Shown here: positions 56,264 to 63,634 of the stretch, in pieces
How the letters are laid out: each line of letters starts with the position of its first letter
Numbering within the stretch: the stretch's first letter is position 1
From: Candidatus Latescibacterota bacterium
GTDB lineage: Bacteria; Latescibacterota; UBA2968; GCA-2709665
Direction of reading: 5' to 3'
Length of the DNA stretch: 64,000 nt
Assembly: GCA_965116875.1 (NCBI GenBank)
Contig: OZ220733.1
Coordinates: 3,968,001-4,032,000 of the forward strand
The notes under the pieces: generated by a model
The model's database searches: none
Told to the model about the DNA's origin: nothing
The model's input: only the letters and a program-made list of their open reading frames with translations
Program-made: the position numbers and the translations under genes

Positions 56264-57286
56264 ATGCGATTCGGCGACGTTCAGGCATTCTGGTTCCTGC
56301 TGACCGTGCCCGCGGCGATTCTGTTATTCGCGATCGCGTTTCGAAAGAGACGCCGGGCGCTCGCCCGTTTCGGAAGTCCGGAACTGATGCGGAAGCTGAC
56401 GGCGGCCACGAGTTGGAAGAGGCAGTGGGTAAAGGCGGCATTGACCGTCGGCGGTCTCGTCTTCCTTGTTCTGGCGCTGGCGCAACCAAGGTACGGAATG
56501 CGGCTCGAACTGCTGCACAGGAAGGGCGTGGATGTAATCGTGGCGCTGGATACGTCGCTGAGCATGCTGGCGGAAGACATCCGGCCCAATCGACTGACGC
56601 GCGCGCGCTTCGAAATCGAGTCCTTTATCGACAGGCTGGAAGGCGACAGGATCGGGCTGGTCGCGTTTGCGGGCCGCAGCTTTACGCTTTGCCCGCTAAC
56701 CCTGGACTATGGCGCCGCCAAGCTGTTTCTGGACTCGATCGACACGGAACTGATTCCAGTGAAGGGAACGGCCATCGCCGAAGCCATACGCGCGTCGACG
56801 CGGGCGTTCGGCAGCGAGGAAAGGAAGTACAAAGTCCTGGTGCTGATCACGGACGGCGAAGACCACGCGGGCGATCCGGCAGAAGCCGCGAAAGAGGCGG
56901 CGGAAGCCGGGGTGCGGATATTCGCGGTGGGCGTGGGGACGCCCGGCGGAGAGTTGATCCCGGTGAAGCGGAACGGAAGGACGGATTTCTTGAAGGACAG
57001 CCGGGGGAATTACGTCAAGTCGCGCCTGGACGAGGCGAGTCTGCAACAGGTCGCCGGCGTGACCGACGGGGTCTATCTGCGCTCACAGGCCGGCGGCGTG
57101 GGCATGGACAGGGTATACGACGAAATCTCGCAGATGGAGAAGAAGGAACTGGGATCGCGGAAATACACGCAGTACAAGCACCGGTTCCAGTGGCCGCTGG
57201 CCGTCGCCGTCGCCTGTTTTGCCTGCGAGGCGATGTTGTCGGATCGCAGAAGGGTGCGAACGCGATGGCGGGGGCGGTTTCAGTAA
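56264..57286 (+). CDS. batB: BatB-like vWA membrane protein
   Basis: ALAQP, DTSLSMLAED..PNRL, LITDGEDH, GVGTPGG, FQWPL. Confidence 0.88.
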   Translation: MRFGDVQAFWFLLTVPAAILLFAIAFRKRRRALARFGSPELMRKLTAATSWKRQWVKAALTVGGLVFLVLALAQPRYGMRLELLHRKGVDVIVALDTSLSMLAEDIRPNRLTRARFEIESFIDRLEGDRIGLVAFAGRSFTLCPLTLDYGAAKLFLDSIDTELIPVKGTAIAEAIRASTRAFGSEERKYKVLVLITDGEDHAGDPAEAAKEAAEAGVRIFAVGVGTPGGELIPVKRNGRTDFLKDSRGNYVKSRLDEASLQQVAGVTDGVYLRSQAGGVGMDRVYDEISQMEKKELGSRKYTQYKHRFQWPLAVAVACFACEAMLSDRRRVRTRWRGRFQ

Positions 57287-57330
57287 TCCCAATACAGCTT
57301 CTCAAACCGGATTCACCCGGAGTGTGCTTC

Positions 57331-58149
57331 GTGTCTCGATATCTGATTGGACTCGTCATTGTTCCGCTTCTCGGCTTCACGTTTCTGGATCCGGCGGCGG
57401 ACAGGAACAGGCGGGGCAACCTCATGTTTCACGAAGGCAGGTTCGAGGAAGCCCTCGAGTACTACCGCGAGGCCCAGGTGGAAAATCCGGATGCGCCGGA
57501 ACTCAGGTTCAACGCGGGCGACGCCTACTTCAAGAAGAACGCCTATAAGGACGCCCTGCAGGAGTTCGGACAGGCGCTGAAGAGCAGGGACCCCTCGCTT
57601 CTCGCAAACGCGTACTACAATATGGGCAATGTCCACGTCCGCCAGCAGAATCTGCAGCAGGCGGCCGATGCATACAAGCGGTCGCTTGCGCTGCGGCCGG
57701 ACGACCTGGACGCAAAGGTGAATCTGGAATGGGTTCTGGAAAAAATGCGGGAACAGGAGGAGAATCAGAAGCGAGAACAGGAGCAGGGCGAGAATCGGGA
57801 TGAAGATCAGGACCGGAAAGAAAACAGCAACGAGCCGGGCGAAAAGGATACGAATGACGGTGGGAACGGGGAACAACCGGAGGAACGGCCCGATCCGGAG
57901 GCCGACGGCAATCAGGACGGGAATCGGGAAGGCCAGGGCGATCCGGACCGGGAACAGCGCCCACAGCCGGAAGACCCCGACGGGAAGCAGCAGAATCAGC
58001 AGTCGTCGCAACCGGAGTCGACGGCCGGTTCATTGAGTCGAGAAGAGGCGGAACGCCTGCTGGATGCGATGAAAGACAGGGAAACGAAGTCACAGAAGTA
58101 CCGCCGTTTGCGCGTTTACGGCAAACGATACAAGGGTAACGAGTGGTAG
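57331..58149 (+). CDS. batC: BatC-like TPR protein with an E/Q/D-rich tail
   Basis: GN..F, YNMGN, YKRSL..P.D.DAKVNLE, acidic low-complexity linker, EAERLLDA, terminal NEW; start GTG 57331 or 57322. Confidence 0.85.
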   Translation: MSRYLIGLVIVPLLGFTFLDPAADRNRRGNLMFHEGRFEEALEYYREAQVENPDAPELRFNAGDAYFKKNAYKDALQEFGQALKSRDPSLLANAYYNMGNVHVRQQNLQQAADAYKRSLALRPDDLDAKVNLEWVLEKMREQEENQKREQEQGENRDEDQDRKENSNEPGEKDTNDGGNGEQPEERPDPEADGNQDGNREGQGDPDREQRPQPEDPDGKQQNQQSSQPESTAGSLSREEAERLLDAMKDRETKSQKYRRLRVYGKRYKGNEW

Positions 58150-58151
58150 GA

Positions 58152-59975
58152 ATGTCACGCGCGACCATCTATGTCTGTTTATTCGTACTCCTGATTTCGC
58201 GCGGTGTCGCGCTGGCCGAACCGCCGAGTCTGCATGTGTCGGTCGACCGGACGCGCGTGGAGGTGGGGGAACAGGTCACGCTGACGGTGACGTTAACGGC
58301 CGGCGGAGACGTCCCCGCGCCCGAACTCCCGGTTCCGGAGGCGTTCGAGGTTGTCGGGCGATCGTCCTATACAACCCAGCAACTCAACATTACAAACGGC
58401 CGGGTCGTAACCACGCGAAACAACTCGTACGTTTATTCCCTTACGGCGAGGCGCGAGGGAAGTTTCGTAATCGGGCCGGCGCACGTGCTGCACGAGGGCA
58501 GGCGGCATGAATCGTCGAAAGTTCGGGTGAATGTCGTGCAACCCGGCCGGCCGCCGCCCACGCGCCAGGTACCCGTACCGGGACAGGACGCCGGCAATTC
58601 CGGCGGGGAGGACGTGGAAGCGGACCTGTTTGTCGCGACGACGGTGGACAGGAAAAAGGTGTACGTGGGAGAGCAGGTAACCGTTACGTACAAGTTCTAC
58701 ACACGCCGTACGCTCCGTAATATCAGTTACGGTCGCCTGCCCGCCTACACAGGTTTCTGGTCGGAAACCCTGTTCGACGCGCAACGCGCCAATTTTACAC
58801 GAGAGATTTACAACGGCCGCGAGTTCAACGTCATGCGGTTGAAGACGATGGCGTTGTTTCCGGCCGCGTCGGGTGTACAGTCGCTTGACGTTATCGAAGT
58901 TGTCTGCCAGGTTCAGGACCGCACGCGCCGCAGAAACCTGTTCGATATGGATGATTTTTTCGGATTCGGCGCCGGCAGGGAAGTGCGGACGCGATCGGAA
59001 GGCGTGAAGATCGAAGTCTTGCCTCTGCCCGCGGGCGCCCCCGCCGGGTTCAGCGGCGCGGTGGGCCGGTTCGACGTATCCGTCGAGGCATCGCCCGTTG
59101 TCGTCCAGGCGGGAGACCCGATTGAGGTGAAGGTAACGGTGCGCGGGACGGGTAACCTGAATGCCGTGGGCGAACCCGTTCGGCCGGAAGGCGACGCGTT
59201 CAAGTTCTACGATCCGAACTCAACTGTGAGTACGGGTGACTCGGATGGACGAATCGGCGGCGAAAAGAGCTTCGAATACGTCGCGATTCCCACCCGGGAC
59301 GGAAAACTGAATATCGGTCCGTTTCTGCTCGCCTATTTCGACCCTGAGGCACATCGATATCGGACAGCGCGTTCGCGTGTGGTTTCGGTAGACGTGAAGC
59401 CGGGCAGGCCGCAGGCCGCTTCCGGGGCGGTGATGAGCCGGAGAGAGATTGAGATGCTCGGACGGGACATCCGTCATCTGAAGCCGGATCTCGGAAATCT
59501 GGAGGATCACGCCCGGCAGGTTGTCAGGAGCACCTGGTTCTGGACCGTTCAGCTCGTGCCCGTCCTCGGATTTCTCGGCATTTTTGCATACAAGCGCCAC
59601 CGGGACCGGATCATGGGTGACGTGGCTTATGCCCGAAGACGGCGTTCGGGTTCCGAGGCCAGGAAACGCCTGACGCAGGCGCGAAAGCGACTCCACGAGA
59701 AAGACGGGGTGGCGTTCTACGTAGAAATCGACCGCGCGCTGGCCCAGTTTCTGGCCGATCGATTGAATCTTCCGGTTGCCGGCATGACCCGTGAGTCGGC
59801 GGCGCGGGCGCTTCGAGACGTGGATGTGCCTGATCCAATCGTCTCGCAAGTACAGGATGTCCTGGTGCGCTGCGACTACGCGCGTTTCGCCTCGGTCCGG
59901 ATTCCGGAGAAGGAACGCGAGGAAATCTACAACGCCGCGGCGTCGCTCATCGACGTGTTGGGAGCCAGGATATGA
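58152..59975 (+). CDS. batD: BatD family protein
   Basis: Signal peptide; repeated beta modules (VDR..VGEQ, VYVGEQ), FSGAVG.F, GTGNL, YFDP; TM; ARFA. Confidence 0.88.
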   Translation: MSRATIYVCLFVLLISRGVALAEPPSLHVSVDRTRVEVGEQVTLTVTLTAGGDVPAPELPVPEAFEVVGRSSYTTQQLNITNGRVVTTRNNSYVYSLTARREGSFVIGPAHVLHEGRRHESSKVRVNVVQPGRPPPTRQVPVPGQDAGNSGGEDVEADLFVATTVDRKKVYVGEQVTVTYKFYTRRTLRNISYGRLPAYTGFWSETLFDAQRANFTREIYNGREFNVMRLKTMALFPAASGVQSLDVIEVVCQVQDRTRRRNLFDMDDFFGFGAGREVRTRSEGVKIEVLPLPAGAPAGFSGAVGRFDVSVEASPVVVQAGDPIEVKVTVRGTGNLNAVGEPVRPEGDAFKFYDPNSTVSTGDSDGRIGGEKSFEYVAIPTRDGKLNIGPFLLAYFDPEAHRYRTARSRVVSVDVKPGRPQAASGAVMSRREIEMLGRDIRHLKPDLGNLEDHARQVVRSTWFWTVQLVPVLGFLGIFAYKRHRDRIMGDVAYARRRRSGSEARKRLTQARKRLHEKDGVAFYVEIDRALAQFLADRLNLPVAGMTRESAARALRDVDVPDPIVSQVQDVLVRCDYARFASVRIPEKEREEIYNAAASLIDVLGARI

Positions 59976-60799
59976 GGAACGGGCGCACACGGACCTGCTG
60001 CGTCCGGCGGTCTCTCCGGGCCCTCGATTCCGCCGTTCCTGCGGCAGGTTCGGCCTTGCCGGCGGTACTGGCATTTCTGCTGTTCACCGGCGCCGCCGGA
60101 GGCGCCGGGACCGGCGCGAGAATCTACAACGAGGCGAACGCCCTTTACGGGCAGGGCGAGTTCAAAAAGGCGGCCGTTCGGTACGAGGAAGTCGTCTCAC
60201 GGGGCGTCCGGAACGGTTACGTTTTCTTCAACCTTGGCAATGCCTATTTCAAAGCGGGAGAAACGGGCCGGGCGATTCTCGCCTATGAGCGGGCTCTCAG
60301 GTTGATGCCGGATGATGAAGACGTAATTGCGAATCTCAGGTTTGTGAACGCCGTGAAAGTAGACAGGAGTCCGGATGACAGCGCAAATCTTGTAACCCGC
60401 TTCCTTTCGTCCGGCTACGGGCTGCTGAGTGCTGATGTGCTGGCCGTATCCGGAAGTGTCTGCCTGTACCTGGCGGCGGCCGCCGGGGTGTTCTGGCTTC
60501 TTGTGCCCTCGCGACGCTCGTTGTGTATCGGTTTGCTGGTGCTGGCGGGCATGGGGTTGGGCGGTTCGGGCGCGCTGCTGACGTACCGGGTATATAGTGA
60601 AAACGCCGTTTCGGAAGCGATCGTCATTTCGGACAAGGTGAGGGGACGCAGCGGGCCAGGGGACGATTATCTTCTCGTGTTTACGATCCATGAAGGTACG
60701 AAGGTAACGATTGAACGGGTTGAAGAACGCTGGTTTCTGGTAAGGTTGCCAAACGGCATTGGCGGGTGGTTGCCCGGGAATTCGCTGGAGATCATCTGA
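59972..60799 (+). CDS. batE: BatE-like TPR + SH3 protein
   Basis: [22 protein letters not shown], two TMs, SGP..IHEGTKV..W..GW. Confidence 0.87.
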
Positions 60800-60911
60800 A
60801 CCGTGGAAGGCGGGAACGCATTCGCGGGCGGCGTTTGGGATTTCGGTGGTTCCGGGCAGCGAAGTCCGGTTTCCATTGCGATTTGGCTACTCACGCGGTC
60901 AGGGGGTTGGC

Positions 60912-62258
60912 GTGACGTCGTTCAAGGCGTGGTTTCGATGTTTTAGAGGTTGCAGCGGCCGTTATCCCCTGACGCAGATCGTCTACGCGTGTCCGAAATG
61001 CGGCGGTTTGCTCGAGGTGCGCCACGATATGGAAGCGCTTCGCGACCGATCACCTGCGGACTGGCGTCGCCTGTTCGATCGGAGGTATATGCGCACGGAA
61101 TGGCCGTACGGCAGTTCCGTATGGGGCAAGAAGGAAATGGTATGCCCCGTTGTGGACGACAACAACGTCGTGTCGATGTACGAAGGGGGCAGCAATCTGT
61201 TCTGGGCCGAGCGTCTCGGCCGGGAGATCGGAGTCGAGGACCTGTGGGTCAAGCAGTGTGGAAACAGCCACACCGGTTCGTTCAAGGATCTGGGCATGAC
61301 GGTGCTGGTGTCGATGGTTCGGCAAATGGTCTTCGAAGGGCAGCGCATCCCCGCCGCCGCGTGCGCCTCGACCGGAGATACTTCCGCGGCTCTGGCGGCC
61401 TATTGCGCGCACGCCGGTATACAGGCGGTCGTGTTCCTGCCGCGGGACAAGGTTTCCACGGCCCAGCTGGTGCAGCCGATGGCCAACGGAGCGCTGGTAT
61501 TGAGTCTGGATACCGACTTCGACGGGTGCATGAAACTGGTTCAGGAGATATGCCACAGGGAGAATATCTACCTTGCCAATTCGATGAACTCACTTCGTGT
61601 AGAGGGGCAGAAGACCGTAAGCGTGGAATTGTTGCAGCAATTCGACTGGGAACTGCCGCAATGGATCGTAATTCCCGGGGGCAACCTGGGCAACGTCAGC
61701 GCCCTGGGAAAGGGCTTCAGCGAGTTGAAGGAAATGGGCCTTGTCGACCGTGTGCCACGAATCGCGGTTGCTCAGAGTGCCCGGGCAAATCCGCTCTACC
61801 GGAGTTTTCTCAACGATTTCGACGCATTTGAACCTCTCAAGGCGCAATCAACCCTGGCCAGCGCCATTCAGATCGGGGACCCGGTCAGTACCGAAAAGGC
61901 GATTATGACCCTCAAGAACATCGGTGGGGTTGTGGAGCAGGCGACCGATCAGGAACTGGCGGACGCTGCGGCGAGGGTGGATCGAACCGGGTTGTTTTCG
62001 TGCCCGCACACGGGCGTGGCCTTTGCCGCGCTCTTCAAACTGGTGGACCGCGGCGTCATCCGGAGCGATGAGCGGGTTGTGGTGATATCGACCGCCCACG
62101 GATTGAAGTTCGCCGATTTCAAGATCAGGTACCACCAGGCTGAACTCGGCGCATACGACGTGGACCCGAACCATGCGAATCTGCCCTTGCAGTTGCCGGC
62201 GGAATACGGCCGGGTCCGGGATCAGATCTTTCGGACGCTCGATTTGAACGGTGGTTGA
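60912..62258 (+). CDS. thrC: Threonine synthase, plant-like type
   Basis: [69 protein letters not shown]; start GTG 60912. Confidence 0.93.
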
Positions 62259-62283
62259 CAGCGGCGATGGATTTGGTTACATT
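62255..62283 (+). promoter_or_regulatory. Sigma70-type promoter for the riboswitch-CGS transcript
   Basis: TTGACA (62255-62260, overlapping the thrC stop), 17 nt, TACATT (62278-62283). Confidence 0.75.
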
Positions 62284-62299
62284 GATCGACCGGATTCAG

Positions 62300-62355
62300 T
62301 GTAGTGGTGATTTGAGGCATATTGCAGCCACTATAAAGAAATCGCTAAAAAGCTG
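62300..62355 (+). promoter_or_regulatory. SAM-II (SAM_alpha) riboswitch aptamer
   Basis: P1 TGTAGTGG (62300-62307) / CCACTATA (62328-62335) enclosing TGATTTGA..TTGCAG, then an A-rich linker and GCTAAAAAG, the SAM-II consensus layout; lies upstream of a methionine biosynthesis gene. Confidence 0.85.
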
Positions 62356-62392
62356 ATCACCCATACGATAGCTGGTCGCGTATTCAGGATCT

Positions 62393-62421
62393 CTGGGGCT
62401 TTTTGGCTTCAGTTTTTTTTT
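62393..62421 (+). terminator. Intrinsic terminator (attenuator) in the CGS leader
   Basis: CTGGGGCT-TTTT-GGCTTCAG stem with G-U pairs, followed by T9, ending 19 nt before the ATG. Confidence 0.75.
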
Positions 62422-62440
62422 GTTGTTTCCGGAGGATGCA

Positions 62441-63634
62441 ATGGCAGAGAAGCTATCGACGGATGGCGTCTGCAATTCTACCTGTGCCGTCCACGCGGGG
62501 GAAAACGGAGGGCATTGGGGGCATTCCCTTACGGTTCCGATCGCGCAGACGTCGACCTACGTTTTCGAAAACACCACAGCGGTGGACGATTTCGTGTCCG
62601 GGCGTTCGGCCCGACTCGATTACGGGCGCTACGGAAACCCGACGCAACAGATTGCCGAACGAAAACTGGCCGAACTGGAGGGTGCGGATTCGGCGCTGTT
62701 GTTTTCGTCCGGAATGAGCGCCGTGACGACGACCCTTCTGGGCATGCTGTCCACGGGTCACCACGCCGTGATTACCGACGACTGTTACAGGAAGACCGCA
62801 CAGTTCTGCGAGCAGATGCTGAGGAAGTTCGGCATCGACACGACTTTCGTGCCCGCAGGCGACTATGGAAGGCTGGAGTCGGCCATGCAGGAAAATACGA
62901 GAGTGGTGATTGCGGAGTCTCCAACCAACCCGCATCTGAATGTGATGGATCTCGAAAAGGTGGTCCCCATCGCCAAGGCGAAACGTGCGAAAGTCGTTAT
63001 TGACAGTACGTTTGCCACACCGTTCAACCAGCGTCCCCTGGAGTTCGGTGTCGATCTCGTCATTCACAGCGCGACCAAGTATCTGGGTGGGCATAACGAC
63101 CTCATCGCCGGCGCCGTTGCAGGATCCGAGCCGCTGGTTTCGGCCATAAAGGACTATCGTGGAATTCTGGGAGGCGTGATCGACCCACACTGCGCGTATC
63201 TGCTGATCAGAGGCATCAAGACGTTCCCGCTGAGGATGGTGCGTCAGAACGAGACCGCGCTGGCGCTTGCCCGTTTTCTGGAGGGGAACCCGGGGGTGCG
63301 GCAGGTTTACTATCCCGGTCTGGAGAGCCACCCGCACCACCGGGTTGCGCGGGAGCAGATGAGCGGGTACGGCGGCGTGGTGAGTTTCGATCTCAACGCG
63401 GACCTGGCAGGAACCATGGCATTCCTCGATCGCCTGGAGATTCCCTGTATTGGCGCAAGCCTGGGTGGGGTGGAGAGCATCGTCTCCCATCCGTCAACCA
63501 TTTCCTACTACGAAATGGAACGCGAAGACCGGATCGCCATCGGAATCAGCGACGAACTTGTACGTTATTCCGTTGGGGTCGAGGACGCCGAAGACCTGAT
63601 CGGCGACGTGGAAAGGGCGCTGGAGGGCGTATAA
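62441..63634 (+). CDS. metB: Cystathionine gamma-synthase, plant-like (Cys/Met PLP family)
   Basis: YGRYGNPT, FSSGMSA, DCYRKT, ESPTNP, DSTFATP, HSATKYLGGHND, SLGGVES; RBS GGAGG before ATG 62441. Confidence 0.85.
   Translation: MAEKLSTDGVCNSTCAVHAGENGGHWGHSLTVPIAQTSTYVFENTTAVDDFVSGRSARLDYGRYGNPTQQIAERKLAELEGADSALLFSSGMSAVTTTLLGMLSTGHHAVITDDCYRKTAQFCEQMLRKFGIDTTFVPAGDYGRLESAMQENTRVVIAESPTNPHLNVMDLEKVVPIAKAKRAKVVIDSTFATPFNQRPLEFGVDLVIHSATKYLGGHNDLIAGAVAGSEPLVSAIKDYRGILGGVIDPHCAYLLIRGIKTFPLRMVRQNETALALARFLEGNPGVRQVYYPGLESHPHHRVAREQMSGYGGVVSFDLNADLAGTMAFLDRLEIPCIGASLGGVESIVSHPSTISYYEMEREDRIAIGISDELVRYSVGVEDAEDLIGDVERALEGV

Follow-up and report, generated by a model that had tools for sequence, protein, structure and literature searches.

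A plant-type threonine synthase and cystathionine gamma-synthase gene pair with an intervening SAM-II leader suggests a bacterial O-phosphohomoserine branch point in Latescibacterota

In plants, threonine synthase (TS) and cystathionine gamma-synthase (CGS) compete for O-phosphohomoserine (OPH), and S-adenosylmethionine (SAM) allosterically activates TS and represses CGS through the MTO1 nascent peptide. Do some bacteria run the same branch point, and what would then stand in for MTO1? The question is raised by two adjacent genes, thrC and a CGS-like gene, at positions 60912-63634 of a 64,000-nucleotide stretch of DNA (hereafter the window) from a Candidatus Latescibacterota bacterium (GenBank assembly GCA_965116875.1, contig OZ220733.1, positions 3,968,001 to 4,032,000 of the forward strand). 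A first-pass annotation of the window had likened both gene products to plant enzymes and proposed dual SAM control of an acylation-free route to methionine, with a riboswitch doing the job of MTO1. We read the locus as a bacterial version of the plant OPH branch point in which the CGS-like gene would be shut off by SAM through transcription termination, and we give this reading a probability of roughly 65%. The enzyme types, gene content, aptamer family, alternative pairings and conservation in relatives on which it draws were computed directly.

The plant comparison was made with bit scores to chains of the Protein Data Bank (PDB). The thrC gene (60912-62258, + strand) starts with a GTG, five bases behind AGGGGG (60901-60906), and encodes 448 amino acids (aa), its stop codon ending at 62258. 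The protein scores 218.9 bits on TIGR00260 (NCBIfam cut-off 167.1) and 189 bits on Pfam PALP, and the SFKD motif with the pyridoxal phosphate (PLP)-binding lysine, HTGSFKDLG, has the same letters as in Arabidopsis TS. Among all PDB chains, the top match is Arabidopsis TS (1e5x/2c2b/2c2g; 554.2 bits, query residues 8-440 on chain residues 46-476). The runner-up structures are short bacterial TS with 177-187 bits (best 186.6) that align only from query residue 77, so ThrC has a plant-like N-terminal domain which the short bacterial TS do not have. Judged from these matches, ThrC is a plant-type TS.

The frame of the CGS-like gene is open from 62420 to a stop ending at 63634, and the start is most likely the ATG at 62441, preceded by a Shine-Dalgarno sequence GGAGGA (62431-62436, + strand), and not the TTG at 62420; the gene as we read it (62441-63634, + strand) encodes a PLP enzyme of 397 aa. 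Pfam PF01053 (Cys_Met_Meta_PP) matches it at 439.8 bits, and the top PDB match is tobacco CGS (1i41/1qgn; 407.6 bits, query residues 13-396 on chain residues 58-444), ahead of methionine gamma-lyases with at most 315.2 bits (many above 300) and E. coli MetB (1cs1) with 255. Since the next structures score far lower for both proteins (186.6 bits for TS, 315.2 for CGS), the plant likeness is specific and not a family-wide signal, and by its sequence the CGS-like protein is also of plant type. The DCYRKT motif aligns with Tyr163-Arg164-Lys165 of tobacco CGS. Only 12 residues stand ahead of the part aligned with tobacco CGS, which leaves no room for a plant-like MTO1 region. None of the 25 NCBIfam models shown reached its equivalog cut-off on this protein (best NF006097 with 392.3 of 600 bits, followed by the methionine gamma-lyase model TIGR01328 with 385 of 549.7), and the NCBI model library therefore labels it with a generic family name only. 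The likeness to Arabidopsis TS and plant CGS that the first-pass annotation had noted is borne out by these scores, with the same motifs aligned, and the five motifs quoted there are all present: two belong to the frame ending at 62258, and the frame 62420-63634 contains DYGRYGNPTQ as well as DDCYRKTAQ.

Does the genome offer another way into methionine? Assembled as one contig (5,453,092 bases; marker-based completeness 97.7%), it encodes homoserine dehydrogenase (hom, 211 bits), homoserine kinase ThrB (282 bits versus a cut-off of 168), MetH (1653 bits) and MetK (602 bits). In this closed genome we found no MetA (TIGR01001; Pfam PF04204), no MetX (best score 22.9 bits, on an unrelated hydrolase) and no match to the DUF39/HcyBio route; a DUF39 protein, which belongs to another enzyme family, was proposed in 2014 to act on OPH in Desulfovibrio (PMC4045070). 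Looking for metA and metX was a check that the first-pass annotation had named, and the outcome, neither gene found and thrB present, speaks for its acylation-free route. The sole other strong PF01053 member is a 379-aa protein (genome positions 2531230-2532348) that lyase, synthase and sulfhydrylase models match about equally, and it is a possible candidate for the cystathionine beta-lyase; no third PF01053 gene (MetY- or MetZ-like) was found in the genome. By its gene content the cell could make OPH and use homocysteine, and the CGS-like protein is the sole recognisable enzyme that could link the two.

Between the two genes lies a compact leader. A promoter-like TTGACA-17-TACATT (62255-62283, + strand; matching the consensus at 10 of 12 positions), its -35 hexamer sharing bases with the stop codon of thrC, is followed by a SAM-II (SAM_alpha, RF00521) riboswitch aptamer (62294-62368, + strand; Rfam model positions 1-79, i.e. 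the full model) with 43.9 bits against a gathering threshold of 36 and an E-value of 1.3e-06 for the whole window. Further downstream, a terminator scan gave an intrinsic terminator (62393-62421, + strand) made of the hairpin CTGGGGC-TTTTTG-GCTTCAG (62393-62412) and nine T. The aptamer 3' strand TCGCTAAAAAGC (62342-62353, + strand) is complementary to the 5' arm and loop of the terminator (62397-62407), its alternative partner as a predicted antiterminator; the duplex of ~10 base pairs has -12.9 kcal/mol and was matched by none of 200 shuffles of the downstream leader. The riboswitch that the first-pass annotation had guessed at is thereby real: it stands directly ahead of the CGS-like gene, together with a terminator, and the protein is too short to hold MTO1.

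In the searches made, a SAM riboswitch turned up at one place only. RF00521 is the sole Rfam family detected in the 64-kb window, an Rfam search ahead of thrC gave nothing at E-values up to 1, and the CGS leader is the sole genome-wide SAM-II match, both in a covariance-model search that scored 150 of 620 candidates and with our own pattern. For SAM-I the genome gave no match (150 of 355 candidates scored), and searches at thrB, at metH and at the PF01053 and ThrC paralogs revealed no riboswitches. By themselves the consensus scans are unremarkable, with one promoter-like site where shuffles lead one to expect 1.3 and four terminator-like sites versus 3.4, and the minimum-free-energy fold of the whole leader is not better than that of shuffles (z -0.13). 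With scans and fold near shuffle level, the case for a regulatory platform rests on the specific terminator/antiterminator pairing and on its conservation.

That conservation is extensive among the 30 distinct leaders of relatives (31 loci) that we compared. The promoter-like TTGACA-N17-TA.A.T stands 20-39 nucleotides (nt) 5' of the aptamer in 27 of the 30, and all 30 have at least one hairpin followed by a T-run of six or more. A complement of the aptamer tail (~10 base pairs) lies inside the terminator in 29 leaders, L037 being the exception, with a duplex that at most 2% of 200 shuffles of the downstream leader matched. Changes in the terminator stem preserve pairs (for example GGGGC/GCTTC to GGAGC/GCTCC). 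In the genus g11 (leaders L041-L050, ~190 nt before the CGS start), there are two tandem terminators, each with a CTTTTT complementary to the AAAAAG tail of the aptamer and followed by a T-run, which may form a double attenuator. The simplest reading of these leaders is a predicted OFF switch that works through transcription termination.

Put together, the preferred reading runs as follows. ThrB would make OPH, for which the plant-type TS and the CGS-like enzyme would compete; TS would convert it to threonine, and the CGS-like enzyme would swap the phosphate for cysteine to give cystathionine, or possibly for sulfide to give homocysteine. The PF01053 paralog would cleave cystathionine, MetH and MetK would carry homocysteine on to methionine and SAM, and no homoserine acyltransferase would be needed. 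At low SAM, the aptamer 3' strand would be base-paired to the terminator's 5' arm, allowing the CGS-like gene to be read; at high SAM, the aptamer would hold its 3' strand, the terminator would form, the methionine branch would close and OPH would be left to TS. The leader would also stop read-through from thrC, because no terminator lies between thrC and the leader. OPH as the substrate, the sulfur donor and the OFF sign of the switch are what we infer from the genes and the leader together. Of what the first-pass annotation put forward, the plant-type enzymes, the failure to find metA, metX or DUF39 beside the presence of thrB, and the riboswitch with its terminator are supported at the level of sequence; OPH use by the CGS-like enzyme and activation of ThrC by SAM, the second arm of the dual control, are predictions.

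How far does the arrangement extend within the phylum? We searched 168 species genomes of the window's GTDB phylum, with the window CGS as query for CGS orthologs (at least 419 bits, 51-100% identity, versus a lower group at 331 bits or less); plant-type TS were called when full-length at 64% identity or more, or as fragments at contig ends, and MetX-like genes at 340 bits or more or as two halves, the 500-bit model cut-off being reached nowhere, control genomes included. CGS orthologs occur in 129 genomes and plant-type TS in 123. Both are present in 118 genomes and neither in 34; TS alone is found in 5, four of them on short or cut contigs (G061, G062, G123 and G163) and two with MetA (G093 and G062), and CGS alone in 11, all of family f10, whose TS is of the ordinary short type. 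MetX-like genes occur in 32 of the 168 genomes and MetA in 7. Among the 118 pair genomes, 12 have a MetX-like gene, 5 have MetA and 101 have neither acyltransferase; none of the 22 genomes of the window's own family, of which 10 are single contigs and most are at least 94% complete, has a MetX-like gene or MetA. Family f10, which combines the CGS-like gene with an ordinary TS, has MetX in 8 of 11.

Linkage of the two genes is broad, and the riboswitch is limited. Directly 5' of the CGS gene we found thrC at 29 of 30 near loci, the remaining one being truncated by the end of its contig, and at 15 of 20 distant loci of the phylum, the distant loci that do not have it there being those of four f10 genomes and G098. 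SAM-II scored above gathering at all 17 scanned loci of families f1-f3 and at G098 (18 relatives' loci in total), and at none of the 18 other scanned loci (families f4, f8 and f10); at the scanned f4 and f8 loci, thrC and the CGS gene abut or overlap. This difference in breadth argues for an old gene pair, spread across the phylum, and for a promoter-riboswitch-terminator cassette that was inserted between the two genes in one order-level lineage. Five genomes of family f4 (G134, G126, G142, G133 and G118) have a second full-length plant-type TS (~65% identity to the window TS) away from the CGS gene. At two further loci (L073 and L074, of G164 and G159), the CGS reading frame extends over 767 aa without a stop, and thrC and the CGS start overlap by ~24 nt.

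The CGS clade reaches well beyond Latescibacterota. Scanning species representatives with two conserved CGS-clade peptides, [DE]YGRYGNPT and [DE]CYR[KR][TS][RAT]QF, we matched at least 600 stretches, of which at least 598 were confirmed relatives. The best 80 of these 598 or more carry titles of Latescibacterota, Gemmatimonadota, Nitrospirales, Chloroflexota, Hydrogenedentota, Myxococcota, Methylomirabilota, Planctomycetota, Thermodesulfobacteriota, Tectimicrobiota/Entotheonella, Leptospirales, Binatia, Acidobacteriota and others. As 14 of the 80 loci were already in the phylum set, 66 non-duplicate loci remained, and at least 9 of these 66 have thrC directly 5' of the CGS gene, several having too little upstream sequence. 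In 50 of the genomes behind the listed loci, 48 after removal of two phylum-set duplicates, we looked for MetX, MetA and TS. Plant-type TS occurs in 19 of the 48 (57-70% identity or fragments), with a MetX-like gene in 2 and MetA in 3; the 29 genomes without plant-type TS have MetX in 18 and MetA in 3 (an acyltransferase in 21 of 29).

A consistent pattern emerges from these gene contents: where the CGS-like gene is accompanied by a plant-type TS, recognisable acyltransferases are mostly absent, and where it stands alone they are mostly present. On a FastTree phylogeny of 176 CGS rows (one of 177 was dropped for being shorter than 250 aa), an average of 2.3 of 3 contrasts show acyltransferases changing as expected. 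The small number of evolutionary events behind it makes the association between TS type and acyltransferases a consistent pattern and not a statistical result. Likeness to tobacco CGS follows the same trend among the proteins compared, when expressed as the lead over the highest-scoring lyase: +92 bits for the window protein, more than +66 for a TS-linked f4 protein, +54 for a Phycisphaerales protein and +12 for an f10 protein from a MetX-bearing genome. Six genomes without a close plant-type TS, the Chloroflexota-titled G197, G199, G213 and G217 and the f5 genomes G002 and G003, have TS of an intermediate kind (44-49% identity, aligned from about residue 10, with an N-terminal domain included); MetX-like genes occur in 4 of these 6 and MetA in 1 of 6.

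Would SAM act on the threonine branch as well? The N-terminus of ThrC holds Cys10, Cys14, Cys27 and Cys30 in a Zn-ribbon-like arrangement (C..C then C..C; window positions 60912-61010), and the four-cysteine motif, counting shifted CxxC in some, is kept in 33 of the 34 relatives read. Arabidopsis TS has no cysteines at the aligned positions, where RS-RS stands opposite the bacterial CPKC, and a bacterial Zn ribbon may be the ancestor of the N-terminal domain of plant TS. That the plant-like domain is so well conserved is one point in favour of SAM activation of ThrC; another is that most pair-bearing lineages are without the riboswitch and would need other means of sharing OPH between TS and CGS. 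On the other side stand the four cysteines and the resemblance of the domain to the Zn-ribbon N-termini of other ThrC paralogs in the genome, so that the presence of the domain alone does not imply a SAM site. By analogy with plants, we regard activation of ThrC by SAM as a tentative proposal whose chances fall somewhat short of even.

The genome encodes three further ThrC-family paralogs with Zn-ribbon N-termini (L015:1285-2472, + strand; L014:1453-2568, - strand; L017:1303-2526, + strand), which may, by sequence family, serve as a second TS, as a MetM-like homocysteine synthase or in another role. No ThiS/MoaD-like sulfur-carrier gene was found beside any of the three, and four ThiS-like genes lie elsewhere in the genome, one of them in a cysM/cysK-like cluster. 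A MetM/MetO module built from these paralogs is unsupported, as none of them adjoins a Gly-Gly sulfur-carrier gene. At L018 and L013 (genome positions 3607342-3610538), a ThiS-like gene (74 bits) lies between two cysteine-synthase-like PALP genes, a cluster that looks like a CysM/CysO-type thiocarboxylate route to cysteine.

We also considered the residue equivalent to Lys165 of tobacco CGS as a marker of phosphate specificity. In the tobacco CGS structures of Steegborn (1999 and 2001), Lys165 of the neighbouring subunit reportedly helps to bind the substrate phosphate. PMC8428831 describes Tyr163 of the same enzyme as catalytic and Lys261 as binding PLP. Of the 129 phylum orthologs, 126 were readable at the YRK position. 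Families f1-f3 have YRK in all 52 proteins, and family f4 has YRM in 33 (28 of them from genomes without either acyltransferase), YRR in 19, YRK in 5 and YRQ, YRD or YRH in 4, all four of the latter in genomes with MetX or MetA. Family f10 has YGK or YGR in 11, and Planctomycetota and Hydrogenedentota have YKK. Acyltransferase-free lineages can thus do without a basic residue at the third position, the motif does not track MetX cleanly, and we rejected it as a marker of phosphate specificity.

Several results weigh against the reading of the locus as an OPH branch point, the failure of this marker among them. A MetX-like gene or MetA accompanies the plant-type pair in 17 of the phylum's 118 pair genomes and in 5 of the 19 from other phyla, so the family is not tied to acylation-free genomes and may accept acyl-homoserines. 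The TS-type trait changes only four times on the CGS tree, leaving 3-4 independent contrasts and sign-test p-values of 0.25-1. No curated NCBIfam equivalog is reached by the CGS-like protein, with the lyase model at 385 bits and the top CGS-family model at 392, and a cystathionine beta-lyase is not assignable with confidence, the paralog matching several models alike. On the threonine side, the genome may have another TS besides the plant-type one, given the 596 bits of the L015 paralog on NF006050 ('threonine synthase').

These points leave room for other accounts of the CGS-like enzyme, which differ in substrate, sulfur donor or direction of flux. It could be an OPH sulfhydrylase that turns OPH and sulfide into homocysteine in one step, with neither cystathionine nor a beta-lyase involved. 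Plant CGS performs a sulfide side reaction, and the sole PF01053 paralog, matching lyase, synthase and sulfhydrylase models alike, leaves the beta-lyase without a confident assignment; sequence does not tell the sulfur donor, however, and that paralog (2531230-2532348) could itself be the beta-lyase, and we consider the one-step route unlikely. The enzyme could instead be an ordinary gamma-synthase or sulfhydrylase acting on O-acetyl- or O-succinylhomoserine supplied by an acyltransferase of an unrecognised family, in which case the adjacency to thrC would reflect shared regulation of the aspartate family. Coexistence of the CGS-like family with MetX-like genes or MetA in 25 of 129 phylum genomes and 26 of 48 elsewhere is in keeping with such a substrate, as are the variable Lys165 position and the unreached NCBIfam equivalogs, but none of the window family's 22 genomes has MetA or MetX, the sole solved OPH-using CGS is the closest relative among structures, and the enzyme is tightly linked to a plant-type TS, MetX being usual where TS is ordinary. 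An acyl-homoserine substrate is in our view distinctly unlikely.

Two further accounts would take the CGS-like enzyme out of the main path to methionine. A Zn-ribbon ThrC paralog with a thiocarboxylate carrier, similar to MetM of Streptomyces, might make most of the homocysteine and leave the CGS-like enzyme an accessory role; the genome does have three such paralogs, and MetM is a ThrC homolog that is often misannotated, according to the GapMind 2026 preprint. The four ThiS-like genes nevertheless lie away from these paralogs, none of which has a ThiS/MoaD-like neighbour or a detected riboswitch, and the sole SAM riboswitch found would control the CGS-like gene, which makes this account very unlikely. 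A catabolic methionine or cystathionine gamma-lyase, to which the second place of TIGR01328 in the NCBIfam list (385 bits) and the many lyase structures above 300 bits might point, is extremely improbable: TIGR01328 stays below its cut-off of 549.7, tobacco CGS leads by 92 bits, the CGS-like protein has YRK where the aligned lyases have YGC, and both the linkage to thrC and a SAM-dependent OFF riboswitch fit a biosynthetic and not a catabolic gene. The OPH branch point with a predicted SAM-II OFF switch is our preferred reading.

Compared with the plant branch point (Arabidopsis TS1/MTO2, tobacco CGS and Arabidopsis CGS1/MTO1), the bacterial locus has two enzymes whose nearest matches are plant proteins, a homoserine kinase and no acyltransferase that we could find, and SAM is predicted from the leader sequence to lower expression of the CGS branch here too. 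Unlike plant CGS, the bacterial protein is without the N-terminal MTO1 region, and an RNA aptamer with a terminator replaces the nascent peptide; unlike Arabidopsis TS, the bacterial TS has four cysteines at its N-terminus, and in the bacterium the TS and CGS genes are adjacent. The aptamer belongs to the same family as the alpha-proteobacterial SAM-II (RF00521) found before metA and metZ of Sinorhizobium meliloti and likewise stands ahead of a methionine biosynthesis gene, but it occurs in a Latescibacterota lineage, directly after thrC and ahead of a plant-type CGS, with tandem terminators in some relatives. For the S. meliloti metZ leader, a terminator-type SAM-II platform has been predicted (PMC9373788). 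E. coli MetB (1cs1), an O-succinylhomoserine-dependent CGS, shares the Pfam family and the gamma-replacement reaction class, but scores 255 bits versus 408 for plant CGS, and E. coli needs MetA, which was not found here.

A second bacterial point of comparison is MetM/MetO, the thiocarboxylate route by which Streptomyces converts OPH to homocysteine (Hasebe et al. 2024, cited after the GapMind 2026 preprint). It shares with the reading proposed here a bacterial conversion of OPH to homocysteine without homoserine acylation; MetM, however, is a ThrC homolog that works with a sulfur carrier, whereas the Latescibacterota enzyme is a fold-type I Cys/Met PLP enzyme without a linked carrier gene. 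Textbooks and recent papers regard OPH as a methionine precursor of plants alone, joined since 2024 by the MetM/MetO route of Streptomyces. The preprint 10.64898/2026.09.15.751699 has methionine synthesis via OPH proceed through CGS 'as in plants' and, for some Streptomyces, through MetM/MetO; in the GapMind 2026 preprint, MetM/MetO is the sole OPH route listed. Full-text searches, in which subscription journals were mostly outside coverage, found no paper on a plant-type OPH-dependent CGS route in bacteria, and a prior report is possible.

The two enzyme families were known before, as were the plant pathway and the SAM-II class; what this analysis adds is the promoter/SAM-II/terminator cassette that separates thrC from the CGS-like gene, a census of pathway genes in the closed genome, and gene counts over 168 + 48 genomes. 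Adjacent plant-type enzymes with a SAM switch suggest that a supposedly plant-special route is common in bacteria. If the reading is true, the plant route would be widespread in bacteria, with at least 598 stretches holding both CGS-clade motifs, a gap in methionine pathway prediction would be filled in many uncultured phyla, and the bacterial TS would be predicted to be SAM-activated. It would also point to a bacterial origin of the plant enzymes and offer a natural comparison of two SAM controls on CGS, an RNA switch and the plant nascent peptide. It is a more doubtful step to suppose that the logic of a SAM-activated TS and a SAM-repressed CGS predates plants in bacteria, with plants having inherited both enzymes and MTO1 having replaced the RNA switch. 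If the plant logic were bacterial in origin, hundreds of species in many phyla would reach methionine with no acylation of homoserine, and current pathway predictors would mistake them for auxotrophs.

Concerning the surroundings of the locus, no RNA runs are listed for it, and DNA runs with a partial share of the sequence (0.22-0.38) are labelled as sponge and coral-reef metagenomes. The genes ahead of thrC (window positions 56264-60799) are long open reading frames that, judged by eye, appear to encode vWA-domain, TPR and membrane proteins resembling a Bat-like aerotolerance cluster.

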